A stretch of DNA of 64,000 bases from Leucoraja erinacea (lineage: Eukaryota), in assembly GCF_028641065.1 (NCBI RefSeq), contig NC_073407.1:20088001-20152000 (forward strand). Reading direction: 5' to 3'. Both the position numbers and the translations under genes were made by a program. Below are positions 2,366-64,000 of this stretch, piece after piece. Under the pieces are notes generated by a model that did not search any database, was not told the DNA's origin, and saw only the letters and a program-made list of their open reading frames with translations. Numbering within the stretch: the first letter of the stretch is position 1; each line of letters starts with the position of its first letter.

Positions 2366-2722
2366 AATTTACCATTCTGTCTTTCTAGCCCTAGGAATCC
2401 TATAATTATCCTAAAATAATATTATTTGCACAATCTATAATGCCCTGGAGTTATTTGCCAATTCCTCGAACTCTTTACACAATAATTTAAGGAGTATCCT
2501 CATCATACAAAATACACCGTTTCAAGAAATCCATAATTGGATTTGCGTTTGCCTTGTCAACAATATATGTATACACACAGGCACAAATCGCGTTTGATCC
2601 CATCGATGACGACAATCGACGACTTACAGGAAAATTTGCTTTTAATGCATTTGCACAAGTACCATATTTTAAAGCGCTGTAACTCTGATATCGAAATGAA
2701 GAGACGGAAACAAGCTACTTGC

Positions 2723-3086
2723 CTAAATGGCTGTGACATCTGGGACACGTTGCCACTGTCCAAGAATATCCAGGAAACCAGGAGACCTGGTCGTCCGCCG
2801 GCCAGTGCTTGTGGACGGCAGCTCGCTTGAAAGTGAGCACCTGGAAACGAAGGCCCTGCGGGTTCTGGAAGAGCTGCACCGGGACCCTTCGCTCACCGAT
2901 CAGCGTGTCGTTCCTCTGGGCTAAAGCCAAGGGACTGGCCACAAATTTAAGGTCCCGACTGACAGCCACCTCGTAACCACATGACCTGCACAGCAAGAGC
3001 TCGTCCCCCGACTCCTCTTCCTTCCCCTGACTGGCGTTATGTCCGCTCACGGCGGAGACCGACATCAGCAGCAACATCCACCACAT
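2723..3086 (-). CDS. Cereblon-like CULT-domain (thalidomide-binding fold) protein with N-terminal signal peptide; first coding exon, remainder presumably left of the window
   Basis: Translation has a hydrophobic leader MWWMLLLMSVSAVSG, then CRSC...FQNPQG...SWFPGYSWTVATCPRCHSHLG, matching cereblon NPHG and [22 protein letters not shown]. Acceptor tttttctctcag at 3117-3118; donor AG|GCAAGT after 2723 (GC-AG type). Confidence 0.88.
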
Positions 3087-3601
3087 CTTTCAGGCCGCTT
3101 CCCACTCCTACCCCACCTGAGAGAAAAAGTAAAATATAACGTGTTAATTTCTCCAGAATAAAATTACTTTCAAATACATATTTTTTATCGCCGTAGCCAG
3201 CAAATTATTTCAAATTTGCCCGGGACCCATGGTACTGTAACGCATTTTGCAGCACTTATTTTAATTCTCCGGCCTTTTTAACTATAGCTTTCCTGCAACT
3301 TACATTTAAATGTCTTAGAGAAGAAACACATAGCAATGTAAGAGCCTCGGATATTTATCTCCTCCACCCCCTACTGGCTGGAGGATTCTATACACTTTCT
3401 GCTGTTGAGATAGAATCACTTCATTTCACGGGTTCCATTAATATCACATCTCACTTTTCAAGGTCGTTTAAAAACAATTTTCCTTTCAAACATGCAAGGG
3501 AAACTTGCATTCGCACACAGCCTAAAGCACGTTGCAGCTAATTAACTACTTTAGTAATTTAGAAAATGGAATAGCCATTTAGCATTCAGGATGACATAAA
3601 C

Positions 3602-41939: not shown

Positions 41940-44900
41940 CTAAACCAACCCATCCTCTTCTTTAAAATAAATCCTTTCCCATGCAACAGTCTTGCATACA
42001 CAGAAAAACACCCACAAATTCCCAAGAATGCCCTGATCAAATGGATTTTCCTCTGAGCTGCAATGTTTGAGGTAAGAAATGCGATGGCGGGACATAAACT
42101 CCCAAGTTGTGGTATTGCTGGATACCAGATACAAGTGCGATACCAATAACAGCATAACCACCACGGTGAAAATGATAATGATGATGAATGCCAATAGCAG
42201 GAATGTGTTGATACGGAGCCACTCTTTCCACTCGGTTTCAGTACCGAATCCAGACCTACACATAAGAGCAATAATATTTAGGAATATTATAGATATCAGG
42301 CATTGTGCAATAATTAACTATGCAGAATGATTTCATGCTGATCCTTACCAGGCAATGTGGAAAGCCCACAACAGGACAGTCAATTGAGAAATCAGGTAGA
42401 GCATAAAGAAGCGATGATTTCTCTCCCCCACACAGTTCTCAATCCACGGGCAGTGGTGATCATATCGGCGTACACAGTGTTGACAGGACTGGCAGTGTTT
42501 AGACCGCATGGGTTGCTGCTGAAACGAATTAAAATCATTAGAATTTATCTTCTAAATCAAATAGTGCAAAAATGAGTTAAGCTTAACCCGAGGTGGAATT
42601 ATTCAATGTTCTGCCTGCTTCTGTAATACAGAATCGACAGATTGAATCCCACAATCGCAATTTAAATTTGCCAAATTTACTAAATTATTTCAACATTTTA
42701 GCATTTACTTTGTTTTACAGAAAGAAAATGTCAGGGATTAGTACCCAACTAAAAATACAGATTTATGATATTTTGATATAACAGGCTTATAATTGAACAC
42801 CAATTTATATTAAACTGCAATTTCTTGGAGCTCACTTTAGCTACTGGAGTTTCCAATTGAATGCAATAAATAAAAAATGATTGCACTTCGTGTGATAATT
42901 ATCTAAATCCAACTAACATAGCTTAACACCTAACAGTATTAAGCATTGGTCACTGTTGGAGATGCCTCTTTCAGATTAGATGTTAAAAAAACCATGGCAA
43001 AAAATACAGGAATTCTCTGATATCCTCCCCATTATTATTATTTGCTCAACAGTGCATTTAAAAGCAGATCATCTGATCATTTTTTTCTCACTTTGTGTTG
43101 TGGGTTTCTCTGACATGGTCAGCACTTTATTGACCATCCCTAACTTTGACAGCCTTTCAGGTCGGAAACAGGCCCTCGTCTGAATTGCTTTTGAATTTCT
43201 TGAGATTTTTTATACTGAACTGATACACTTTAAACCTGTACTTTTAGAAAAATAAATTCCCACCTGGACCATGCAGTAGCCACAGCGCCTCAATCTCTGG
43301 GCTTTCTGTACCACAGGGACCATCTGTTCCTCGTCATCCCAAACACAATGAACCGATCGAGACACCTGGGTTTGCAAGGAACCAGCAAAAACCTCAGGAA
43401 CTGAAAAACTTATTCTTCAAAATAAAATACATAGCACTATGTTTATTGGAAGAAAGTGTTAATTTTAAATAAGGGGGTAAATATTTGCAAACACAATCAT
43501 ATGAAGCTACCTGAATTTAGGGAAGACAAATAAGTACATAAGGAACATAAGACTCCTAGTAGCAATGGATGAAAATTGTGGGAGAAAGCTCACATGAAAC
43601 AAAAACATCAACATGAAAGAATAGCACCAATTGCCAGTTTCTTTACTACAAGTTTTGTCTATAGGTGACCCCTCACGTTTTAGAGGGTTGTGTTCCTTGA
43701 AAACAGTCTATCACAAATCTCTGTAACATGAAGCTGCGTCATTAGTGCATACGGCACGAAACACGAGTTAAAAAATATATGGATGTTTTATTTACTTTTT
43801 CTCCCAGTAAATTCCGTGAGAGCAAATTTTATTCCGTGTCTCCGATTTGTGACTTCTGTAAGGGGCAATTCCCGTTACCCAAACAGTCCTAAGGAATTGC
43901 AGATGCAGATGCTAGAATCTTGAACAAAACACAAGGTGATGGAATAACTCAGTGGGTGAGGCAGCATCTGTGGAAAATACAGAAAGGCAATGTTTCGGGT
44001 CGGGACTGACGAAAGGTTCCGACCCGAAACGTGATCTATCATGTCCTCCAGAGATGCTGCCTGACTCGCTGAGTTGCACTCGCACTTTGAGCCCTAACAC
44101 AGGTTGCCTGTAATTTCGGCTCTGGAGCAATATCTTTACAGGATATAACTTACTTTGGCTACTCACATGGAGGAAATAATGCAGCCTCAGCTACCTGTGG
44201 CATATTGTGCTAGATGTAGATTGATTTACCTTTAGTTCATCATCAAATGTGACGTATCCTGGATCCATGAGGGAGGTGATGAAGTACAGTAACATTGAAC
44301 AGAGAACGAGCAGGAGGAAGGTTACTGGCTTTAGGAACTCGCCACGTTCCTCGCTCTGCTTCAAATCTGTAATTAACAATAACAATTATTTGCATTCGTT
44401 CAGCATTTTTCATATGCATGAGGAAAGTGACAGGCAAATAAGTAATGAAAATGTAGTCATATTTTCTCCTGGATGTGGAGAGGATGTTTCCACACGTGGG
44501 AAAGTAGGATTAAGGGACGTTCTTTTAGGAAGGAGATGAGAAGAAATGTCTTTAGTCAGAGGGTGGTGAATCTGTGGAATTCTTTGCCAATGAAGGCTGT
44601 GGAGGACGTCAGTGGATATTTTTAAGGCAGAGATAGATTTTTGATTAGTACAGGTGTCAGAGGTTATGGGGAGAAGGCTGGAGATTGGGGTTAGGAAGGA
44701 GAGATATATCAGCCATAATTGAATGGTGGAGTAGACTTGATGGGCCGAATGGCCTAATTCTACAATTCCTTATGACCTTCTTAGACAGTCCTTCAGGATC
44801 AGGAATGACATGCTTCTGCTGGAGTTCTGCAGATTTTAGGCCAGTGTTGCACCCATAAACTTTGTCATTAGTGGGGCAAAAGCTGCTTAATATGAAGGTA

Positions 44901-46497
44901 GTTATACTCTACATAATTTATACTGGGCTTTTGTGTGTTCAAATGGATTCTTAAAGCCTTAGCAAATGCTCCTCCATTCTATGAGGTCTTGAATCTGATT
45001 TTCTCATAAATTGTGGGAAGGAGTAGTGTCTAATCCAGGTTTCAGGTGGTGGACAAGCGATGGAGCCTGCCCAATCGAGCCAGCACTGTAAATAGGGCTT
45101 CAGAGCTAGGAATGTTGGGCTGGAGGGGGATACTAACGTTGGTCTGTCCGGTTTTGTGCAGTCTCTGCAGTCTGGTGGAGCGCGTCTCCAACAACAAATT
45201 CCTCGGGGTACACATCTCGGAGGATCTGTCCTGGTCCCTCAACACCTCCAAGCTGATCAAAAAGGCGCAGCAGCGCCTTTACTTCCTGAGGAGGCTCAAG
45301 AAAGCTCACCTGTCCCCCCAGATCCTGACCAACTTTTACCGCTGTACCATCGAAAGCATCCTGACCACCTACTTCATGGTATGGTACAGCAGTTGCACCG
45401 TAGCAGACAGGAAGGTACTACAATGGGTGGTGAAAACATCAGTACATCATCGGTGCCCCGCTCCCTGCCATGGATGCCCTCCACCGAAAACGGTGTCTGA
45501 GACGGGCCGGGAAGATCATCAAAGACCCCTCCCACCCCAACCATGGACCCATCAGGGAGGCGGTACAGGAGCCTCAGGTCTCGTACTAGTAGGATGAGGA
45601 ACAGCTTCTACAACAACACTATCACACTGCTGAACTCGGAGTCCCACCGATAGATTTCTCCAGTCTCTCCGTCCACATTGTTTACTTACTCTGTATTTTT
45701 ATTTCTATATTGCACTATTACTATGGACTGACGCTAAACTGCATTTCGTTGTACCCATACTTGTATTTGTGCAATGACACTAAAGTTGAATTGAATTGAA
45801 TAACACCTCTTCAGTGCTTTGAAGAGCTTACTGTAGGCTAATTAGGATCAGAGGTGAATTGTAGTAAATACCCAAAGGGCTTGACTAAGTAGGAATGAGG
45901 TATAGATACCTCCCTGGCTGGAGCATCTTAAACTAAAGGGCACTGTCTCAAAAGAAGAGTGTTGGTCATGCAGGTAAGATAATATTTTCCTTCAGCCAGA
46001 GAGCATAGAATCTTTGGAAGGTAGACAAAAATGCTGGAGAAACTCAGCGGGTGAGACAGCATCTATGGAGCGAAGGGAATAGGCAACGTTTCGGGTCGAG
46101 ACCCTTCTTCATGCTGAATGCTGCCTCACCCGCTGAGTTTCTCCAGCATTGTGTCTACCTATGTTCTCCCCGTGATCCGAGTGGGTTTTCTCCGGGTGCT
46201 CTGGTTTCCTCCCACACTCCAAAGACGTGCAGGTTTCTAGGCTAAGTGACTTGGTATAAATGTAAAATTGTCCCTAGTGCGTGTAGGATAGCGTTAGTGT
46301 GCAGGGATCGCAGGTCGGCGTGGACTTGGTGGGTCTGTTTTCACGCTGTGTCTCTAAACTAAACGACCCACGGACATGTTGGACCCACTGACGGCCTCAC
46401 CCGTTCTGTGCAGGAAGAGAATCAACGTCACCGCCCAGGTGAGCGCCACGTGACCGGCCCGCACAGCGAAGCCGGCGGACAGAACCTTCCGGAACAT
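41940..46497 (-). CDS. ZDHHC12: Palmitoyltransferase ZDHHC12, about 272 aa, 5 exons
   Basis: Exons 46497-46401 ([30 protein letters not shown]), 44366-44230 (SLMDPGYV), 43365-43264 (RRCGYC), 42515 or 42518-42349 ([28 protein letters not shown]), 42255-41940 ([15 protein letters not shown]). All junctions are GT-AG and in phase. Confidence 0.95.
44470..44780 (+). mobile_element. CR1 LINE 3' end
   Basis: [19 protein letters not shown]-like sequence plus 3' UTR. Confidence 0.8.
45172..45801 (+). mobile_element. Rex1-like LINE 3' end
   Basis: [20 protein letters not shown]...[13 protein letters not shown]; (ttgaa)n tail. Confidence 0.88.
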
Positions 46498-46750
46498 TCC
46501 AGAGCAAACGCCGGCTCGCCGACCTCGCGTCCCGGCGGCGTGGGGCCACCTTCAGCCGCGGCGGGAGCGGAGCGGGCGAAGAGGGACCATCACCGGGGCC
46601 GGGAGCGGAGAACAGCCCGCAGTCAGCGCCGCGTCCCCACCCCCCGCCGTCTCCTCGGAGACAGTAACACGGCTGCTCATTGGTGGCGACGCCCCGTTTG
46701 GTTGGAGGTAAGATCAGTCCCGGGATCTGCGCTGCCGCCGGGGACTGGAT
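46370..46750 (-). promoter_or_regulatory. CpG island / ZDHHC12 promoter and 5' UTR
   Basis: Very CpG-rich; minus-strand CCAAT at 46679-46683. Confidence 0.7.
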
Positions 46751-47802: not shown

Positions 47803-50534
47803 CTCGAGGTACCAAGATTTCTCTCTCCGTCCCTACCCCTAGTTCTCCGATTAGTTTCACTGCCCCCCTGATTAAATTTACTGATTGCATCCTTCCTTGT
47901 CAGCTTTCCCTCAGCTAATAATGAACCATTCTACATTTCTTTATAAGCATCTGCTTTGATCTGTCGTTTTCACACCTTACCCCTCCATATCTCTGGTCTC
48001 CTTCTCCCCTGACTCTATCTAAAGAAGGGTCTCCACCCGAAACGTCACCTATTCCTTCTCTCCAGAGATGCTGCCTGGCTCGCTGTTACTCCAGCATTTT
48101 GTGTCTGTCTTATATTGTAAATAGAACTGGGACTTGATTAACAACAGGGTTTCTCATCTGGTTTTAAAGGGGAAAATGGCGCAAAGGTGTTTCGGGAAGA
48201 TTACCAGCACCAGAATAAGAAATACAAAGATTTTTGGTGAAACCGAACTAAGAAGGACCAAGATGTGTGTGCTCCAAACCAAAGTGTATTAGACTAGTTT
48301 AGGGGTAATTAACTACATCTGATCGTGATGTTATTTCTTTACAAAGGGTCATGAATAGGTTCACAATATGTGCCAGTACAAGGTGCAGAAATGGTTAAGA
48401 GCATTTGCAGTGCTGAAAAGTTTGAGATTAGTTTATTGTCAAGTGTACAGAGGTACATACAGTGAAAAGCTTTTGTTGCGTGCTAACCAGTCAGTGGAGA
48501 GACAATACATGATTACAATTGAGCCATCCACAGTGTACAGATACGTGATAAAGGGAATAAGGAATAACATTTAGTGCAAGAAAAATGTCCAGTATTGTCC
48601 GTTCAAAGATAGTCCGAGGATCTCCAAAGAGGTAGATAGTAGTTCAGGAGTGAAGAAGGGTCTTGACCCACAAGGCCTTCTGTCCAGAGATGCTGCCTGT
48701 GATTGTGATGTTATTGCTTAAAAAAAGGGCCAGGAATAGGTTCATAATATGTGCCAGTACAAGTTGTCAACTCTGGGTACATGAGTCAGAATCTATTTGA
48801 GATAATCATTCATTATCAATCCCTTCAGCTTCCTCCTTTAACTCTGGGACTATGTCAGATTCTCAGGGAATGAATGTAATGGATTCTACAGGGAATATCA
48901 GGATGACGTATATAGATAAGCATCAATAAATGAAATATGAAATTTTATTTTAAGTTGTAAGAACTTTACATTGTTCCATTTCTGTATTGAAAACATAGTC
49001 AAGTTACAAAGTCTTCTAATAAAATGAATATTAAATATTTGGTCATAGTATTGTTTATCACCCAAGTTCCTCTGCAAATCATTCAACACCAAAAACCTCC
49101 ACGTGATTTTTCATTTCATCCATCCAAAAATATAATTTTTGCTCAAATACCCAATAATGCGAGATGGCATCCTGGTAAAACTTGCAGTGTAAGTGACAAA
49201 CAGTGGTATTTCAAACATTGGTGAGCAAAAACTGCTGTAGACAGGAAATTCTATTTTAAAACCCTTCAGTACAGAAGGGTATCACTTGGCCTATTACGTC
49301 TTTTGTGTTTTACTTTCAAAGCACACTAATCCATTTAGCTCATCTTCCTCTACTATTTGCTACAGCTTTATCCCTTTCCATGTATTTATCCAATTCCTTT
49401 TTGAATCGTATTCCAGAGCCATTTCAGTCAATATCACAAAGGTTTAGACTTCAGTGCACACTTAGAAGTGGTGAAATATTGGATGAGTTATCTTTTTTGA
49501 AGAGGCATTAAACACAGGCCCCATCCACACTGCCAAGCAAATGTTAGAGTCCAGGGCATTATTTTGAACAGGAAGGAGAATGGCTATTCCCCCTGTCCTC
49601 GCTAATATTTATCCCTCAAATCCAATAGACACTATTTGATCATTGCATTGTACTTTGGGGGATAGCTTGCTACTTCAAAATTGGATGCCATAATTCTCAC
49701 AAAAGTACATTAAATGTAGTTCTTTGGCTATAAACCATTGTGGTTCACCAGAGGCTATCAAAAAGGCCTTGTCATTGCTAATCCTTTTTACATTAAAAAA
49801 ATTAAATACAATCATTGCCACCACCACTTTGTTCCTCTAACCAATTTCCTGGGTGATGAGTAAGGAATAGTCTTTCAATAACCAAGTATCATAAAGAGCA
49901 ATGTGATAATGACCGTATATCTTTTTTTAAATACAACTGAGTGAGGGATGAATATTGGCGAGCACCAGAGAGAATTCCCCAGTTCTTTAGCTACCTGAGG
50001 AGGTCAAGGAAAGAGCGTTCACGGCACAGCCCTGTTTCCACCAATCTTTCCACCACCAAGCACAAGAAGCGCAAGACAGACACCATTGTATGCAGATGCC
50101 GAGAAGTGTGTTCAGCTCTGGCTGAACAACTTTTAATCTTGTGTGTGGACTCGATAAGAAGAAGAAGCTACCTGAGAAGTCAGGTTCAATGTCTCTGAAA
50201 ACCTGTGCCTCCAATCGCACTACAGTTCTTCTTAATGGGACTAAGAATGTTAGTCCATTCAGGGTTCGGACCTCAAAGCTAAGGCTTGAACCTGTGATCT
50301 GACAGGGAATGAAACTTGATTGACTTTTATTGTAACGTAAACAAAATGGGAATGTAGTTTGATACTTGCGCTATTGAACCTGGTGCAAAACAAAGACCCT
50401 TTGGAACAATAAATCTGGAAAATGAGGAACGGTCAGTGCATGAGCAGGAACGTGTTGGGTGCCTTGAATTCCTCATCCATGCCCCTTCCAGATCGCAGAC
50501 AGAAGGGGATATGTGAGTTGAGGATTTGGGGCTA

Positions 50535-53500
50535 TTACCAAGCACACGACATCTCAGATGCAGCATCACTATTACGGCGGGTTCTTGTTGGGGACCATCC
50601 CATTTCTGAACGGGTGTCATCTGTGTTTGTCAACTTTGGCCAGCGGCTGTAGCGTTTGGTGGATTGCTTATTATTCCAAATCCGTGGTTTTGTGTTCATC
50701 TGAAACATAACATCATATTTAACACTTGCCCTCTGAAGAGACTTATGAAAGCAAAGTAGACTGCAATTTAGAAATGTCATTGTATCTATATTTATTTTCC
50801 ATTCATAATGCTAATGGACCAAAATAATTCAGTTGTGTATATTGCACAATATCAAAGACTGGTCATGCTTTCATTTCTCTGCTACCATCGGGAACAGGAT
50901 ACAGGAGCCTGAAAACTGACCACCAGCTTAAAGAGCAGCTTCTTCCCAGCAACCATCAGATTTCTGAACACTGCACAACTCTAACCTCAGCAACGATAAT
51001 CTTCTATTGACAGTATATTTGGTTGCACAATGGACTTCATTTTTTATATTATCATGGTAACCAAGTACTACGGTTGTTAAGTTATTGTATTTTTGATTAT
51101 TATATATTTACATGAGTTATTGCATTTTCAGGCCTGTTAAACTGCAGCAAGAAATAATTTCATTATTCCATTATAGGTATATATGACAATTAAACATACT
51201 GACTTGAACTCTTGTTATAAATATATATGCATGTATACATTGGAGCTCAATTTTTAAGTAGAAACAAAAGTAGGCAATTTGATGGCCTTGAACATGCTTC
51301 ACCATTTAGTAAAATCCTCCACCTCAATTCTACATTCCTGTCTAATCCCTATTTCTCAGCCCTGAATATATTCAGCGATGCTTTCTGAAAGTCCAGGTAC
51401 ACTACATCCACTGGCTCTCCCTTGTCCATATTCCTAGTTACATCTTCAAAAAATTCCAGAAGATTAGTCAAGCATGATTTCCCCTTCGTAAATCCATGCT
51501 GACTCGGACCGATCCTGTTATTGCTATCCAAATGTGCGGCTATCTCATCTTTTATAATTGACTCCAGCATCTTCCCCACCACCGATGTCAGGCTAACTGG
51601 TCTATAATTCCCCGTTTTCTTTCTCCCGCCTTTCTTAAAAATTAATATTACAATGTAGAGTATGTGTATAATGTGTTATGTATGTTGCATTATACAGATC
51701 TAATGTCTAAAAGCTAGATATTCTGAAGCAATTCAGACATGCAGTGAGGTATGTGGATTACATTTCTAGCTAGCTGATCTTATCTTATTAATTCCTATTT
51801 AAAAAATTGCTTATATTGTTATAGGAGTGTGGTGCGAGTGGATTTTTCTAAATGGAACTTCTACCTTGGGTTGTAAACCTAACTTGTGATATATTATGTA
51901 GATAAAAAATAGTTTTACCTGTGGGCTTTGAACACTACAACACCACTACTACTTCAAAAAACTAAGATGGTCTATGGACTGTGTATTTTGTTTGCACTAC
52001 TAACTTTGGTTTTGCACAATTATGACTATCCAGTATTACTGTTATTAACTGATTGCATTATTGATTATTCTATATTTATTGTGGTATTGCCTTAATGGTC
52101 CTGTTAAACTGCAGCAACTTTACCGCTGCACTGCAGCACCGCCCCAAATATTTAAAAATCTTAACTTTATACCTTAACTTTGACAACATAATTTTCTCTA
52201 ACCTGTACAAAGACTGCAGTGTTCATCTGAAGTGTCTCCATTCGTTCGTTCATTCTTGCCAGCCAGTCCCCATGGTCCATGATCAGCAGCTTTAGGTCAT
52301 CATTGGACTCTTGGATAAAATCAAACCCAATCTCGCTGCTGGGTGATACAGCCTGAATCCAGGAAAACACAAAACACGTTTCAAACATGGTTCTACCCTG
52401 ATCTGACACTTTAGTTTAATTTAGATACAGCGTGGACACAGGCCCTTCAGCCCACGCCGGCCAGCGATCGCCGCATACACTGGCACTATACTGCACGCTA
52501 GGGCCAATTTACAATCTTTACCAAAGCCAATTAACCTACAATCCTGCACATCTTTGGAGTGTGGGAGGAAACCGGAGCACCTGGAGAACATTCACGTACA
52601 AACTCCGTACAGACAGCACCCGTAGTCTCTGGTGCTGTAAGGGAGCAACTCTACTGTTGTGCCACCGTGCCGCAACACATAGTTGGAGCATCACCAACAC
52701 GTGGTTCCTACTACATCACCATTTCAACTACTCAGCATAATCATCTTCAACCCCTGAGATAATTTCGGGTGATACAATACATTATCTGCATTATTTGTCT
52801 GCAAATTCAATAATAACATTCAGAAAATACACCAGGTGGGGCAGTATGATGGCAAACTCGCTAATCGTCTTTCTCGCCCTTTTCTTCTTTTGTTGTTTTT
52901 AGTCTTGTTAAATGTATGTTTTAGTGTATCTTTAGTTTTGTATTATGTGGGGGGTGGAACATTTTTAATCTCTTTCCTCGACGGAGATGCGGCCTAACAT
53001 CGAGGAGCTGGCGGCCTCTTGCTGGGGACCAATTTCAGGAGCTCCAACCACGGGAGCCTGCAGACTTAACATTGTGGAGTTCGCGGTCCCTTGGTTAGGG
53101 TCTGACTTCGAGTTCCAACCGCCATAGCTTCGACCGCCCCGATCGTGGGAGCTTCGATCACCGGCTGCGGAGTTTCGAACACCCCGACTGCGGATGGTTC
53201 GACTGCCCCGTCCGCGGGAGAATAAGGAGGAACGAAGATAAGACTGTATTGCCTTCCATCACAGTGAAGAATGTGGGAGAGCGCTGTGGTGAATATTTAT
53301 GTTAACTTTTATGTAGTTGTGTGTCTTGTTGCATTTTTGGTATGGCTGTATGGCAAATCAAATTCCTTGTATGTTTTTAAATACTTGGCTAATAAATTAA
53401 AGACAAAAAGAATTGGATCAATAATAAAGTAAAAAATATCCTTAGCCTTGTAGAAAGAACAAAGGGGTGATGCTGCCTGGATACATTTCCATGGAGCTGG

Positions 53501-54384
53501 CATGGACAAAGTGAGCTGAATGGGCTCTATGTATTCAACTATATTCTATGACTCTATAATCCAATTATTTTAAATATGATGTACGCTTTGCCACTCCTCG
53601 GCTCCCTCTTGAAAGTAGGCACAAGGACAGCATGCACAGCGCCAGAAAATGGTTGCTTTACTGAAGGTGGCTCAAGGATTAACATTGGTCCGGATATTCG
53701 TTACAACTCCACAGTTCTTTTTCAATACTGTGCTGTGGTTTCCTTCCACCTGATGAGGCACCTCAGCCCAATGTCTTATTAAAAGATGGGAACATCTCAG
53801 CTTAATGCCTTAATGAAGAATGGGGATTGATCTGGACTGCATTGGTGTGTTCTTGGTCCTTGAAAGGGGCTTAAACACCAAACATTCTGTCTTGGGTAAT
53901 TATGCCACTGACATTAAATTGTATCCTAACTTGAGTGATTCCGACCCAATTAGACTATAAAAATACTGGCAATTATGTTCATTAATAAAATTAATACTGT
54001 CATCCTGTAGAATAAGGAATCAAATTCATGCTTTTGGAGCTTTGCAATGGTTCAGGTTTATTATTGTCACATGTACAGTGAAAAGCTTTGATTTGTATGC
54101 TATCCAATCAGATCAGATAAAACTATTCATAAATACAATCAAGTTAAAAATTCAAATATAATAGGTAGAGCAAAGGGGAAGATGCAGGGTGTGATTCTTC
54201 ACTTGTTCCACCACAGGATTGAAGTAAACTGTGGTCAGTAATGTAAAAAAAATTAAGTGCATGCTACCTCAGCGATGGAAAGTCGCAAGTGTTCCAATTT
54301 GTCGATCTGGTTCCTTAGCCGATCCTCCAGATCTTTCATCAGAGCCAAATTTTCATCAGTCTTCAGATTTTCCCTCTGAGACAT
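50535..54384 (-). CDS. Uncharacterised coiled-coil protein, about 154 aa, 3 coding exons
   Basis: Exons 54384-54268 (MSQRENLKTDENLALMKDLEDRLRNQIDKLEHLRLSIAE), 52352-52203 (AVSPSSEIGFDF...MNERMETLQMNTAVFVQ) and 50732-50535 (RASVKY...RRNSDAASEMSCAW*). All introns are phase 0 with pyrimidine-rich AG acceptors and GT donors. Confidence 0.72.
51375..51640 (-). mobile_element. CR1 RT fragment
   Basis: QHGFTKGKSCLTNLLEFFEDVT...VYLDFQKA. Confidence 0.9.
52410..52675 (-). mobile_element. tRNA-derived SINE (HE1-like)
   Basis: Reverse strand shows the head gcggcacggtggcacaacagtagagttgct and a (taaac)n tail. Confidence 0.75.
52835..53400 (+). repeat. Unclassified CpG-rich element with internal tandem subrepeats of about 23 nt
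   Basis: Repeated units of type agcttcgaccgccccgatcgtggg at about 53105-53220; ends in ...ggctaataaa. Confidence 0.5.
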
Positions 54385-54656
54385 CACGATGACCTGCAGG
54401 AGGCTGCAAACGAAGTAACTGAATATTGTTCAAAAGCTCTTATGTCTGAAATGTTGGCTACAATTTTAGATACCATCTCCATTTTGACCTCTTTTTCTCT
54501 GGCATAAACGTGAAAGAGACCAAAGCATGTCAGAATTGACCAGTTCTGATGACAGGTTAGAACTGAAGCTTGTTTTTATCTCTTCACAGATAATGTATGA
54601 CTTGCTGAGTATTTCAAACACTTTCTGATTTTATTTCAAATTGTCACCGTCACACC

Positions 54657-55175
54657 ATAGCATAGAAGCATAGAAACATAGAAATTAGGTGCAGGAGTAG
54701 GCCATTCGCCCCTTCGAGCCTGCACCGCCATTCAATATGATCATGGCTGATCATCCATCTCAGTATCCCGTACCTGCCTTCTCTCCATACCCCCTGATCC
54801 CCTTAGCCACAAGGGCCACATCTAACTCCCTCTTAAATATAGCCATTGAACTGGCCTCAACTACCCTCTGTGGCAGAGAGTTCCAGAGATTCACCACTCT
54901 CTGTGTGAAAAAAGTTCTTCTCATCTCGGTTTTAAAGGATTTCCCCTTTATCCTTAAGCTGTGACCCCTTGTCCTGGACTTCCCTAACATCGGGAACAAT
55001 CTTCCTGCATCTAGCCTGTCCAACCCCTTAAGAATTTTGTAAGTTTCTATAAGATCCCCTCTCAATCTCCTAAATTCTAGAGAGTATAAACCAAGTCTAT
55101 CCAGTCTTTCTTCATAAGACAGTCCTGACATCCCAGGAATCAGTCTGGTGACCCGTCTCTGCACTCCCTCTATAG
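54657..55175 (-). mobile_element. Young CR1 LINE 3' end
   Basis: Open 134-aa ORF QRRVTRLIPGMSGLSYEERLDRLGLYSLEFRRLRGDLIETYKI; (ctatgttt)-like tail. Confidence 0.92.
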
Positions 55176-55414
55176 CGTTCTAGAATGGTTGCTATTTTCT
55201 TTGCACTTTTTTTCTCCTCCCCTTGTCCATTTTCAGTCGCCACCGTCGATCTGCAAATAACAAGTACTCACCACCCCTTCCAGCAGGCACTGCCACACAT
55301 CTTTCTGCAGACTCCCGATCTGAACCGTCACCTGTCCATTCCCTCCCCAGATGTTGCCTGACCAACTGAATTCTAACACCACTTTATGTTTTTTAGTGAA
55401 TACAGACCCAGTCT

Positions 55415-56585
55415 CCACCATTTATCTTATTGACCGTCTCCGGTACGGGGTTGGTATTGATGGCACTGCCCTGAGCTGGTTTGTCTGCTACCTCAAATAT
55501 AGGAGTTTCTCTACAAACATAGGCGACTCTTTCTCCTCCCCAGCTAGCCTTTCCTGCGGGGTTCCACAAGGCTCCATCATAGGCCCCATTCTCTTCTCCC
55601 TGAATATGCTCCCCTAAGGCCAAGTCATTCAAAGGCACGGCATTTCTTTCCACTGCTATGCAGACAATACACAGCTCTATCTCCCCCTGAAATCCAACAA
55701 CCGATCAAATCTACTCAGCCTTATGCACTGTCTCGAGGATATAAAGTGTTGGATGGCCCAGAACTTCCTCCAACTAAACGAGAGCAAGTCTGAGGTCATC
55801 CTACTCAGCCCCTCGGACTCCATCAAGACGATAGCAGGCAGCCTTGGAAGCCTTACCCCCTTCAAAAACCTTGGCGTGATATTTGACTCCGTGTTGAAGT
55901 TTGACAAACAAGGTATTGCTTTGGTAAAAGCGAGCTTCTTCCAGCTTCGCACGATCGCTAAAATAAAACCATTCCTCCAATTTGACGACCTCGAAAAGAT
56001 CATCCACACATTTATCTCCTCCCGCCTTGATTACTGCAACTCTCTTTACACTGGCATCAGCCAATCATCCCTGTCCCGCCTGCAATTGGTCCAAAACGTC
56101 GCAGCGAGACTTCTGACGGGCACCCGAAAAAGGGACCACATCACCCCGATTCTGGCCTCTCTCCACTGGCTCCCAGTGCGGTTCAGAATCAATTTCAAGC
56201 TCCTCCTTTATGTATACAAAGCCCTTCACGGGCTTGCCCCCACCTACATCAAAAATCTGCTAACCCACCATACCACCTCCAGGTCCCTCAGGTCGGCCGA
56301 CTTGGGGTTACTGACCATCCCGCGGTCTAGGCATAAGCTCAGGGGCGACCGCGACCTAGACTATGGAACAGCATCCCTCTTCCCATCAGAACTGCCCTGT
56401 CCATCAACTCGCAAGCATTTCTTGAGGTCCTCTGAGGGAACGCTGTATGTATGTATTTAAGTATGTATTGTTGATCTATAAGCCACTGTTTGTAGCACGT
56501 TAGTGCCTGCACTGATGTAAAGCACTTTGGTCAACGAGAGTTGTTTTTAAATGTGCCATAGAAATAAAATTGACTTGACTTGACT
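55415..56585 (+). mobile_element. L2-type LINE 3' half
   Basis: [47 protein letters not shown]; (ttgac)n tail. Confidence 0.92.
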
Positions 56586-57373
56586 TATCCAGCAAGCCCG
56601 TCATCCCAAGAACCAATGTGAAAAGTATATCGGTTTTTAGGTAAGGAGGCTTTTTGACCCTACTTCTCATTATGCGGCTTATTGTACTGTTTCGTTGACT
56701 GGCATATCTATGAAGCACGTTGTGACATTTTACAATAATTTGATTCAGTGGTTTTGTTAAACATCTGGAAGGTGATAACTGCAACAAAGAAAGTGCAATG
56801 CATTTATTAAAAAAAATAATTTACATAACTCTGTTTTTAAAAAAAACTTTAAACAAAAGTTTCTTAAGTGCAGTGATAGGAAATAAAAGGATTTATCGGC
56901 AATAATATTATGGGCAGGAGTTCACAAGGTCGCTTGGTGTTGGTGAATATGCTTGGGTGTCACGATACCTCTTTGCTTGATACAGAGCGAGGGGACGTCA
57001 TAGGTCCTTGCGGAGAGAAAGCGGGGTTTAAAGTCCTAGAGGAAGGACTAGGATTCATTGGGCTCACAGGTGGAAGCTGAATTTTCATGATTACAAGTAC
57101 TGTACTCACGAACACAAACAAATTTTAAAAAGCAAAGTGGTACATTGACTAGAAGTACGAAATAAAAACAGGTAATGCTTTAAACGCTCAGCAGATCGAG
57201 CAACTTCAGTAGAGAGAGAATAAGGGTTACAGTTTCAGGTGGCCTTTCTTATACAACCGTTGCCTGGCTTCTGTCTTCCTCACCCGAGCAAATAAAGATC
57301 AGCTACATTACAAAACACATTATCTGTTATTCAAACAGAAAACTTCAACAACAGGTTACCCTAACGCACTCAC

Positions 57374-57587
57374 CTGTTGGGGGAAGGGGAGTGTGTTATT
57401 TCCTCTGATCGAGACGGCTACTCGTGGTGGTCTTAGATTAGCAATGTCCCGGTCTCTAAAATAGTTCACTGCAATTTGGGCTACAAGTTGAGTCTCCCAG
57501 GGGAATGTGAGGAATTCAACCTCAGTTGGTATTGGAGAAAATCAGGACTGGATACCATGAACGAACCGGATTTAAATGTTTCAATAG
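57374..57587 (-). other. Candidate upstream exon of the uncharacterised gene (5' UTR or disrupted coding)
   Basis: Acceptor ccctttcag at 57588-57589 and strong donor CAG|gtgagt at 57374/57373, in frame with the exon starting at 54393. Confidence 0.45.
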
Positions 57588-59945: not shown

Positions 59946-61898
59946 AGTTTTTGTCATTATGAAACTTGATAATATTACCTTCATTGTGCTGCCACAACTT
60001 TGGCCCTACAAGGAAAATTGTGTTTGAACCCAATGTTCAGCGATTAGAAACACCCTAAAGCCCAGTGTAAATTGAGTGGAAGCAAGTTAGCCTCTATGCC
60101 GAGAGGCTGCCCAAGAAGCAGATGCCTAAAGCTTTAGGGGGTGTGACAAACAGATTCCTAACTACAGCAGTGTTAACCTCTGGAACACACAATTGCTCTT
60201 TTCTCACAATGTTAATAAATATTTTCCCACTACTAGTTGTTTAATAAAACAAAGATTCTCAGTGCAGTTGTCCAGCTGTTCCATGTTGACAGTATGTTCG
60301 GGAGCTTTTAGACCAGGTAATCACAAGATATACTCCAAAAACAAACCAAGCCTTGGATAAGAGAACTCAGTCAAAAATGAGAGTTAGTACAATGATTACA
60401 GTTAATATAAATACTGTGTCCTCTTTGATTAAAACACAATGTGCTGGGGTAACTCAGCAGGTCTGGATAGGAGGGAAGGGAATGGAGGGAATGGATAGGC
60501 GATGTTTCAGGTCAGGACCCTTCTTCACTTAAGATTCCAGCATCTGCAGTTCCTTGTCTCCGCATCTGCTTTGATGCTGGTTTTCTATTGTAGACATGTA
60601 CCATCAGTGGGTGCACTGGCTCTTCATCTCCAGTGTTCAGAACATGGAAGCCCTGGCTTTGAGAAATATATGAAGTGCAATTGCTTAATTGTGTGACTTG
60701 GCCAGGAACAGAAGCACAGCCATGAGATCTACATAGATGAGTACAGTATGTTTTACATCTTCAGCACCCACCTTCACATATAATTTGACAAGCTTTCAAT
60801 ACATGATCATAACTGGTTGATTAACATGATACGTGACTGACCATATTAGTTAAATTGCATTCGTTAGATTGCCAAGTGAAAGAGCATCCTCTTTCCCCTC
60901 ATCTTCCCATCAGTCCTTCCAGATTCAATTTGAATCTAGGTAACTTACGAGTGGGTACTGGAGGGCAAGTGATGGGGGTGAACAAAAAGCGACAATAAAT
61001 CTGTTCAGTATTCCCCAAAATGTAAATGTTATTAAAACAGCAAAGCATATGCCTAAATCAGCTTACTAAAGATTACTTGTACATCACTGAATTGGCACAC
61101 ATTACCCACCAATATTTGTGATTGTGACTCAAATTGGGCAGTTTTCAGTGGAACTACTCAGCTCATTTGAGGTCATGCCACTATATTATTTTTGCAATTA
61201 AATATATTGTATTGATATTACCCGCCAATTGAGAATGCTGAGTCTGTAATTAGAACTGGAACATAAAGAGTCCTCTACAAAGAATAGGTAAGATACAACT
61301 TTGCAACAGACCTACAGACCAGGTTCACAGGCTGGTGATTGAATTATCAGTTGCAAGAACTGAATATTAGCACACCTACAGGAACAAGTGCTTCAACAAC
61401 AAATCATTTATTAATTATTCCTTATTTTTCTTAAAAGTTTATAACTGTTGACATTTGATTAACTGGCACAGCCCAAAAGATTTCACAATCAAATTTTTTC
61501 AAGACAAACCATGGAAGCACAATTTACAAAATGACGGGGGAAAGAGTGGAAGGAACATGGGACAGGGAGAAAATGTAGCCGAAAAGCAAGAGTGGAGGGA
61601 AAGAAAATGAGACTCAAATGGCAAGGAGAGATTAAAGGAAGAGTCAAAGTAAAGGTAAAAGGGATAAAGTGAGAGAAAACGCTAATTCCTTATCCAATAA
61701 AAAATGACACGAATTAACATTTTCTTGTGCAACACCAAATATTCTGCTGTGCGTCATCTTGACACCGTGTCATGCACAGAGGTTCCTCCCTATAATGCAT
61801 CTGGTGCATTATTGTAGCAGGACATTAAAGTTCCTCAGTGTCTACACAGCACGCTTGACAGGAAGTAGTGAGAGTTGGTGAGAGCTTATTTTCAGTCT

Positions 61899-64000
61899 TT
61901 AACTCGACGTGTCCATCTGCTCCTCTTTAAAGTTCTCACAAAATTTGATGACATTTCTGTTGGAAAGCGAAATAAAAGAGTGATCACTTTCTTGAAACAG
62001 ATTTGTATATCAACAGTTGCTTTTAATCAAAAGCTGGATAATATTGGTAGAAAATGTAAAGGAAACTGTAGATGCTGGAAATAAAACCAGAAAATGCTAG
62101 AAATACTCAACAGGTTAAGCAGCAGCCGTGGAAAGAGAAATAGTTAACATTTTCTGTCCAGGACCCTTTATTAGATCTGAGTTTCAGCATTTTCTGTTTC
62201 ATGATATAACTGAGAGGTGCTTCATCGCGAGGAGTTGTGTCTTCTACACACACAGCAATGCCCACCTCCAATTATTGTAAGCTGACATTACACATTCCAC
62301 CCAACACTACAAAGGGGACACGTAATTATGTTCCTGTTGCTTCAACCCAAATCTGATGGATTTACTACCAAATTTCGTGGAATACCCATTCCTCACACTG
62401 TCTATCTAGTCTGTGAATTTTGTAATCTCAGGATTTGAGATTACAAAAATCTGCCGATGCTTGCAGATTTCAGCATTCTGAGACATAGCTGTCCATGTGA
62501 AACACGCAGGCTCTGGAAATTCAAATAGACTGACCAATGACCAAGAAATTAAAAAGATCCCAAATGGGTTTTGAAACGAGATTGCCAAGCACTGAGATGC
62601 TGCCAGCAACTTTAATAAGGCAGGTTACACAAAAAAGCTGGAGAAACTCAGCGGGTGCAGCAGCATCTATGGAGCGAAGGCAAATGAGTTCTAGTCTGAA
62701 TATGTCTGCCAATTTGCGAGTAGCTTTATGAGCTTAACCTTTTCCTGATGTTGTATTGTAATTCAACTTATTTGCGTTTGGATCCTTGGAATAACTAGTG
62801 CAAGATTTGTCTTATGATGCTACGGTGTCCCTTGCAGTGTAATGTTAAAAGCTGAACCACTGCACCATGATAAAATGGAAGAATCAGAATGAAACCTGTC
62901 TGGACTGCAACCTCCCGATACAAACTCTGGCTCAAAGTGCTTTGTATGGGACATGTGGTCCTATCTTTGAGAGTTTCACTTACTTTGCCATCTCTTTGGT
63001 CTCTGATCTAGCTGCGTCACTCTCGATCACACCCTTCAGCAGTTCAATTCCATTCTCTTTTATCAACAATGTGCAGTATTTCTCAGCTGAAGATTTAAAT
63101 TAAAAAGTGTTAGTTTACAAGCTGCTTTCAGCTCAAATTTAGCATCTAAATTTCTGATCCAACATTGTACTTCTTTTTTAAAAAGTTATTAAAATGTTTT
63201 TATTCCCTAAAATATGTGCATCAAATTCAACAACTGGATTGTTTGATTGGAGAGAGGAGAGGGGACGGGGAGGGTGAGATCAGAGGCAGCATTGAGAACT
63301 GCACAGTTGAACATTTCCCTTCTCTTCTTTCATTTGTGGGACACATTATTCTGACAATTTCACAGACCATATTTTCCTAGCACATTCTACTGTACTGCTA
63401 CTATATTAACAGCACAGACATGACTGATTGAACACACTGTGTTATTCAACACGTATCTTACAATTTAGGAACACCTCCAAGTCTGGTGTGAATTATGCAA
63501 TTTACTCTTAATAACTCAGCATTTCATATTTTAAGACGAGTCGCAGGAATGTTATTAGATAAGATCTGACTGCTCACTGATATAGGTTTTATGAAACACC
63601 TTAGTGGAAGGAAAGAGAGTTAGAGATAGAATTTCAGAACTTCAGTTAAAGACACAACAGCCGGTGGGAGGATGAAGAACTTCAGGGTGTAGAGACACTG
63701 GAACTGGATCTGAAAGGTGTACATTGGGGATGTTACAGAAATTAGAAGAATCATGGCCATGGAAGGATCTTCAAATAAAGATTAAAATCTTCTTAGTACT
63801 GTAATGGTGATGTTTTTGAACTAGTTGTTCAGAACTCTGGAATCCCATCATGAATATTCGTTTGGGAAATTAAATTCCATTGCTATTGAAATCCTTACCT
63901 ATCCTGCCGTGAACGTTAGAAACATAGAGATACGTCACTAAATGTTACTTACGATAGACTGATGTGAGGTTAAAGAGTGCCCAGGTTGCCCAGTGCTGGC
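61899..64000 (-). CDS. ZER1: Protein zer-1 homolog, last three coding exons (gene continues off the right edge)
   Basis: Exons 64000-63953 (QHWATWALFNLTSVY), 63086-62984 (PEKYCTLLIKENGIELLKGVIESDAARSETKEMAK) and 61956-61899 (NVIKFCENFKEEQMDTSS*). Matches the ZER1 C-terminus; phases are consistent. Confidence 0.93.

Follow-up and report, generated by a model that had tools for sequence, protein, structure and literature searches.

The 64,000-nucleotide (nt) stretch of the Leucoraja erinacea genome analysed here (NCBI RefSeq assembly GCF_028641065.1, contig NC_073407.1, positions 20,088,001 to 20,152,000; hereafter the window) carries on its minus strand a real spliced gene, which encodes a protein of 143 amino acids (aa). 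Judged by sequence, orthologues of the gene are present in several anamniote classes, and the gene was very probably lost in the amniotes (reptiles, birds and mammals). The resulting family of jawed fishes and amphibians is automatically annotated, unnamed, undescribed and unstudied within the literature searched.

A gene with three coding exons and a 143-residue product

As the preliminary description of this DNA had stated, three phase-0 coding exons, separated by GT-AG introns, can be joined on the minus strand as an open frame. The first coding exon (54268..54393) is preceded by an AG acceptor, starts translation with the ATG at 54384 and encodes residues 1-39 with helix 1. The second (52203..52352) encodes residues 40-89, comprising the loop and helix 2, and the last (50535..50699) encodes residues 90-143, which form the basic linker and the conserved tail ending in Cys-x-Trp, and the stop codon (50535-50537). 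The introns between them, 1,915 nt (52353..54267) and 1,503 nt (50700..52202) long, are both GT-AG and phase 0, the latter ending at the true acceptor. The coding sequence (54384-54268 + 52352-52203 + 50699-50535) comprises 432 nt, and its translation is identical to the 143-aa protein P0004.

The gene had been described as encoding 154 aa, with a junction 52203-50732. Both statements had to be corrected: the acceptor of exon 3 is 50699, the next AG after 50732. A search with exon 2 alone returned two 143-aa proteins, whose clusters consist of 11 elasmobranch proteins including RefSeq/GenBank models of Rhinoraja, Cetorhinus, Mustelus, Chiloscyllium and Scyliorhinus. Ten of the 11 are 143 aa long and one is an N-terminally extended partial model of 168 aa; none contains the 11 extra residues of the 154-aa form. 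At the exon-2/exon-3 junction the short spacing was found in 93 of the 103 rows of the family alignment A4 and the long spacing in none, the pattern being unmatched in the remaining 10. The 154-aa form was rejected, as the relatives, the exact match to P0004 and the A4 spacing all fit 143 aa. The 33 nt formerly counted as exon (50700..50732, minus strand) are intronic in all relatives and transcript-derived proteins examined, and the upstream AG at 50732 may have minor splice use.

P0004 was called on 69 assembled contigs, the longest of which is 1,439 nt. The genomic span of the coding exons is 3,850 nt, so the contigs must be free of introns and, judging by this length, are most simply explained as spliced transcripts. 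A search of sequencing runs listed no RNA run as a carrier; 18 of its 24 runs were classed as RNA by guess only, with shares of 0.13-0.21, and they do not enter the evidence. Fifteen stored gene-call fragments, one of them from the skate exon itself, run into the intron at the same point after exon 2, which shows that this exon boundary is common to skate and teleosts. On the same strand, a likely 3′ untranslated region (50326..50534) ends near an AATAAA found by sequence scan at 50331-50326. Because the acceptor of the first coding exon sits 9 nt before the ATG, an upstream non-coding exon is a candidate; its putative splice donor lies at 57368..57380 (minus strand; last exon base 57374).

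Orthologues in fishes and amphibians

Two profile searches yielded 84 matches, all listed, and 149 matches from 7,999 scored candidates, of which the best 120 were listed, down to E 7e-7. A HMMER scan of 1.84 billion representatives, made without a word index, gave 54 matches, all listed, each standing for a 50% identity cluster whose closer members are hidden. The relatives score down to E 1e-91, far beyond chance. The named matches come from chimaera, sharks, skates, bichir, sturgeon, paddlefish, many teleost orders, coelacanth, two newts and eight frog species, with RefSeq models in Rhinoraja, Cetorhinus, Mustelus, Callorhinchus, Latimeria, Polyodon, Polypterus, medaka, tilapia, Lissotriton and two Xenopus species. 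Relative to the skate protein, identity amounts to 90% in basking shark, about 70% in chimaera, coelacanth and paddlefish, 59% in newt and 41-59% in full-length teleost matches. The Rhinoraja orthologue (LOC144608328) differs from the window protein at one of 143 residues. Further orthologues are LOC103184639 (Callorhinchus), LOC106702816 (Latimeria), LOC105355212 (medaka), LOC100692291 (tilapia), LOC108713281 (X. laevis) and LOC116409535 (X. tropicalis). All these entries are automatic 'uncharacterized protein' models without a name, Pfam family or function. In the literature searched, which did not extend to subscription papers and supplements, no paper was found on the gene or on 11 LOC/locus identifiers.

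In a maximum-likelihood tree of 47 named rows the teleost (100/100), amphibian (97/90) and chondrichthyan (91/68) sequences formed groups and no deep duplication was seen; the gene tree appears broadly to follow the species tree. All 33 unnamed full-length proteins were placed inside fish or amphibian clades, and the nearest named relative of the 50 new HMMER matches was always a fish or an amphibian. Of the 63 short queries submitted for placement, four (P0175-P0178, cluster members of 44 aa) had no line in the BLAST output and stayed unplaced. The sole record labelled as lamprey ('Lampetra planeri', P0053) nests in the teleost clade (100/100) among pipefish relatives; its source is likely mislabelled or contaminated, and it was not accepted as evidence of presence in lamprey.

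No amniote was named among the listed matches (84 of 84, 120 of 149 and 54 of 54), and no invertebrate occurred among those listed in the profile searches. The preliminary description had offered two origins, an old vertebrate gene lost in mammals or a lineage-specific gene. Relatives from cartilaginous fishes to frogs refute the second and support the first, except that the loss looks wider than mammals. An alternative is that the gene survives in amniotes in a diverged or unannotated form and the apparent loss is an annotation artefact. Several observations count against a loss and for such persistence. The gene is often mis-annotated or fused to its neighbours, teleost models being frequently filed as EDF1 isoforms, which makes annotation gaps real for this gene; the amphibian branches are long; and among the listed matches no record named as zebrafish, gar, lungfish, axolotl or caecilian was seen either. 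The loss is deduced from protein collections, and 29 of the 149 matches, weaker than E 7e-7, lie below those listed. On the other side, the tail is near-invariant even in the fastest-evolving frogs and would seed word searches, and all 54 HMMER matches among the 1.84 billion representatives are nearest to fish or amphibian proteins. We therefore regard survival in amniotes as improbable and loss as the strongly favoured explanation.

Some lineage-specific features were also seen. The frog members (P0073, P0118, P0121, P0186, P0187, P0191, P0202) sit on long branches and no longer carry the conserved Trp69, with the tail retained, a pattern which possibly reflects relaxed selection on the hairpin in tetrapods. 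In a comparison involving P0012, P0095, P0096 and P0016, what sets paddlefish isoforms apart is an insert of 7 residues in the loop that follows helix 1; in teleosts the 7-residue insert is present and the next loop segment of sharks and amphibians is missing. Such differences point to alternative splice sites whose use became fixed in different ways in the separate lineages.

A predicted hairpin followed by a near-invariant tail

The corrected protein retains the features noted in the preliminary description: both helical segments, the RRNS site and the SCAW at the C-terminus. AlphaFold models of the skate protein and of a teleost protein (mean predicted local distance difference test score, pLDDT, 70 and 73, respectively) both have a helix-loop-helix fold, the cores of the helices scoring above 90 and the tail about 40-55. 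The helices of the predicted hairpin span residues 2-41 and 56-91, and the basic tail that follows is predicted to be disordered. The length of the inter-helix loop differs between lineages. In helix 2 the d-position core (L59, H66, L73, L80 and F87; heptad register assigned by hand) has a mean conservation of 0.93. Helix 1 shows conservation on every side, with D28, K29, E31, H32 and the invariant L35 among the residues kept, and its polar and f-position residues are as conserved as its core, which points to a binding face. A homodimer prediction made without an alignment scored 0.02, which is evidence neither for nor against dimerization.

The linker varies in sequence, and its net charge is +4 to +9 in all 103 rows. 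The most conserved part of the protein is formed by the last 28 residues (116-143), of which 21-26 are identical to skate in eight species from shark to Xenopus; in the adjacent linker, identity to skate outside sharks ranges from 4/18 to 12/20. The frog proteins have diverged in the helices and retained the tail: between X. laevis and skate, 13 of 40 residues are identical in helix 2 and 21 of 28 in the tail. In the 77 rows not filtered for the tail, R130 was found in 77/77 and S133 in 76/77, and S137, E138, S140, C141 and W143 were each found in 76/76. Among stored proteins with RRxS near the end, 146 of 154 terminate in C-x-W, with the Cys at position -3. By consensus, the tail contains a proline-directed site (S125-P-x-R), a PKA/AKT/RSK-type site (RxRRxS133) and serines at intervals that suit GSK3/CK1 relays. 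A CaaX box, which is defined by a Cys at position -4 from the C-terminus, is absent.

Family and fold comparisons

The family had been called unrecognised, and it remained so in Pfam-A: none of the families shown reached its gathering cut-off, either in the exon-wise scan and two further ones (41 queries in all, with every row listed) or with alignments of 77 and 103 members. In the latter two scans the best of the families listed (25 of 43 and 25 of 79) was Apolipoprotein (E 3.5e-4). We took the matches to PDB sequences, namely GCN4, flagellin, CNKSR2 and DRC9 (best E 1e-3), to be coiled-coil noise, and none of the PDB sequence rows shown was a solved structure that identifies the protein. 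With a threshold of E 0.001, Foldseek found no match. VIA-align returned tied generic hairpins only; Nup58, SYCE3 and TEX12 chains were not among the best 50 rows, an absence that does not exclude them. Generic antiparallel hairpins such as CHMP4B (4ABM), the C-terminal part of CEP57 (4L0R/8IBH), PI3K p85 iSH2 and the seryl-tRNA synthetase arm share the overall shape. The closest have Z of about 9-11 and a root-mean-square deviation of 1.5-2.8 over 73-92 residues, and at 6-14% identity to this protein they are tied with unrelated hairpins. The hairpin shape gives no function.

A language-model cluster search with the skate protein gave unnamed clusters, the best at 0.84. With the teleost protein P0049 the top cluster was of Nup58 type (PF15967 on 65% of members; 0.88, 176 of 256 features shared), followed by Nup58/45, Nup49_C and Nsp1_C clusters at 0.77-0.81, and positions 18-83 of the A4 profile aligned to residues 12-77 of the Nup58/45 chain 2OSZ (E 1.2). 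In PMC4513098, Nup58 is described as containing a helix-loop-helix hairpin. The Nup58/Nup49 hairpin (PF15967, PF21121; 2OSZ) is thus of similar length and shows weak feature and profile similarity, and the protein could be a remote offshoot of it without FG repeats, acting on the Nup62-Nup54-Nup58 channel complex or a similar coiled-coil trimer. However, the tool rates 0.88, being below 0.9, as a lead only, with low recognition, and the skate query yields no such match. 2OSZ appeared in one of six PDB sequence searches, ranked under the flagellin and GCN4 noise, and PF15967, PF21121 and PF05064 were found in none of 30 members at E up to 10. There is no significant sequence match, FG repeats are absent from the 143-aa sequence and from the full-length relatives displayed, and the conserved tail, unique to this protein, would be left unexplained. 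Nup58/Nup49 is the only directed lead that the family comparisons gave, and a weak one; we consider this origin very unlikely.

A candidate phosphorylation-controlled adaptor

Linear docking motifs typically show the pattern seen here, a disordered tail that is more conserved than the fold and keeps a fixed distance to the C-terminus. On this ground we read the protein, tentatively and at somewhat less than even chances, as a small phosphorylation-controlled adaptor. The predicted two-helix hairpin would dock into a partner or complex through a putative face formed by the outer residues D28, K29, E31, H32, L35, R76 and Q89, and the always-basic linker would steer the protein to membranes, nucleic acid or the nucleus. 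The state of the tail could be set by basophilic kinases (PKA/AKT/RSK type) at RxRRxS133, by proline-directed kinases at S125-P-x-R and by CK1/GSK3-type relays at S133, S137 and S140. The free Cys-x-Trp at the C-terminus would insert into a pocket on a partner and, together with tail phosphorylation, would control binding to a second partner.

Some points speak against an adaptor. The conserved outer residues of the helices could equally mean self-assembly. Kinase motifs are short and common, and the count of S-P-x-R, present in 116 of 141 tail-filtered rows, is inflated by the pre-filtering of these rows for the terminal motif. The gene, its range among the matches listed and the pattern of conservation are shown; the fold is a model prediction, and binding, tail phosphorylation and the process served are inferred.

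The main competitor of the adaptor reading, although rather unlikely in our judgement, is that the protein serves as a structural subunit, either forming polymers or entering a helical assembly, with the tail serving only to time assembly. A synaptonemal-complex central element like SYCE3/TEX12, to which we presume a resemblance, BLOC-1/BORC or a ciliary or sperm filament could be such an assembly. The size, the hairpin fold and the all-round conservation of the helices fit this role, and S-P-x-R is a CDK-type site. No sequence match to these families was seen among the Pfam and PDB rows shown, apart from Muted, which occurred once at E 0.07; very remote homology to SYCE3/TEX12 may exist nonetheless. 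A purely structural protein would not usually have a tail conserved beyond its helices.

The protein could also be a lipid-anchored membrane regulator, in which S-acylated Cys141, with the Trp and the basic linker, would keep the protein at a membrane until its release by kinases. A palmitoylation hint of this kind, based on the near-terminal Cys and the adjacent palmitoyltransferase gene, had been given in the preliminary description. Lipidation of Cys141 may be compatible with the invariance of this cysteine; Trp143 is equally invariant, the linker is basic in every row, and a gene for a DHHC enzyme adjoins in this genome. Against an anchor, the C-terminus is C-x-W and not a CaaX box, and the Cys is preceded by acidic and Ser residues. 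In ray-finned fishes the neighbours are a PRRC2B-like gene and EDF1; since the adjacency to the DHHC gene is not kept there, the hint gains nothing from the neighbour. A lipid anchor seems unlikely to us.

Genomic neighbourhood

The gene lies between, and on the same strand as, ZER1 and a DHHC-family gene. The last coding exons of ZER1, the upstream neighbour, are at 61898..63084 (minus strand), where 62986-63084 matches ZER1 chains (E 8e-7); the final exon in this interval was read from the sequence and is presumably that of ZER1. The downstream neighbour (41940..46551, minus strand) encodes a DHHC palmitoyltransferase, with PF01529 on 41943-42317 (E 5.5e-7) and a first exon read from the sequence. 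The flanks given in the preliminary description, ZDHHC12 and ZER1, were therefore borne out as to ZER1 and the DHHC family, whereas the specific name ZDHHC12 is our assumption. PKN-type kinase exons with HR1 and Pkinase_C matches (8878-38949, plus strand), which we take to be PKN3, converge on the DHHC gene. In human the gene order is presumably the same, the gap being without a coding gene.

The different neighbours in ray-finned fishes were recognised from mis-fused gene models. In bichir and sturgeon the gene and EDF1 are joined in single models (P0125, P0079, P0092), an eel model has it appended to a BAT2_N (PRRC2-type) protein, and several teleost models carry the name 'EDF1 homolog isoform'. 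Altogether, fused or EDF1-named proteins from bichir, sturgeon and teleosts include P0079, P0092, P0125, P0035, P0064, P0107, P0189 and P0206. MBF1 and HTH_3 domains were found only in the appended part of the fused models (P0125 residues 205-308; P0079, P0092). An EDF1/MBF1 identity of the teleost models was rejected, these domains being missing from the stand-alone members, and no EDF1 or PRRC2 sequence matched the window. The fusions and names suggest a very close tandem arrangement or read-through transcription. PRRC2B and EDF1 share one interval in a table of a trout genome-wide association study (PMC9046923).

Between the gene and ZER1 there is a LINE fragment (55618-56457, plus strand; RVT_1 match) and a segment without Pfam match (54760-55179, minus strand), which we take to be LINE-like. 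Elsewhere in the window, an exon at 2718-3089 (minus strand) has a hydrophobic, signal-peptide-like start followed by a domain resembling the thalidomide-binding domain of cereblon (E 1e-8 to cereblon chains; no Pfam match at E 0.01). It looks like an exon of a secreted protein consisting of a cereblon domain only, presumably of a class with this architecture.

Significance

Whole-gene losses at the step from fishes and amphibians to amniotes appear to be few. The screen of Korotkova et al. (2019; PMC6871517) reports nine such losses in birds and mammals, and genes described there (c-answer, ag1, ras-dva) have a profile similar to that of the present gene, with presence in fishes and amphibians and apparent absence from birds and mammals. 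The nine genes are set apart from ours by their descriptions. The oligonucleotides for its one coiled-coil candidate, 'paramyosin-like', share at most three residues with the Xenopus proteins in any frame, and these oligonucleotides may lie in untranslated regions. The present gene also seems to be absent from reptiles, and inspection of the protein revealed no signal peptide or membrane segment.

As a long shot, the gene could be an invention of jawed vertebrates, maintained as a single copy over some 450 million years and given up when amniotes arose. It would encode a kinase-controlled protein, either a free-standing Nup58-like hairpin or a comparable subunit of a complex, and the invariant Ser-Glu-Met-Ser-Cys-x-Trp end would represent a new class of C-terminal docking signal for a process that only water-breeding vertebrates need.

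Losses of this kind are direct handles on the changes in life and breeding on land, such as those in regeneration, larval organs, gametes and ion balance. The small size of the gene, its strong conservation and its presence in medaka and Xenopus make knockout and pull-down easy. The analysis also corrects an annotation error, as the frequent EDF1-isoform labels in teleosts can conceal the gene from anyone using data on expression or knockouts, and it offers the invariant tail as a candidate for a new linear motif.

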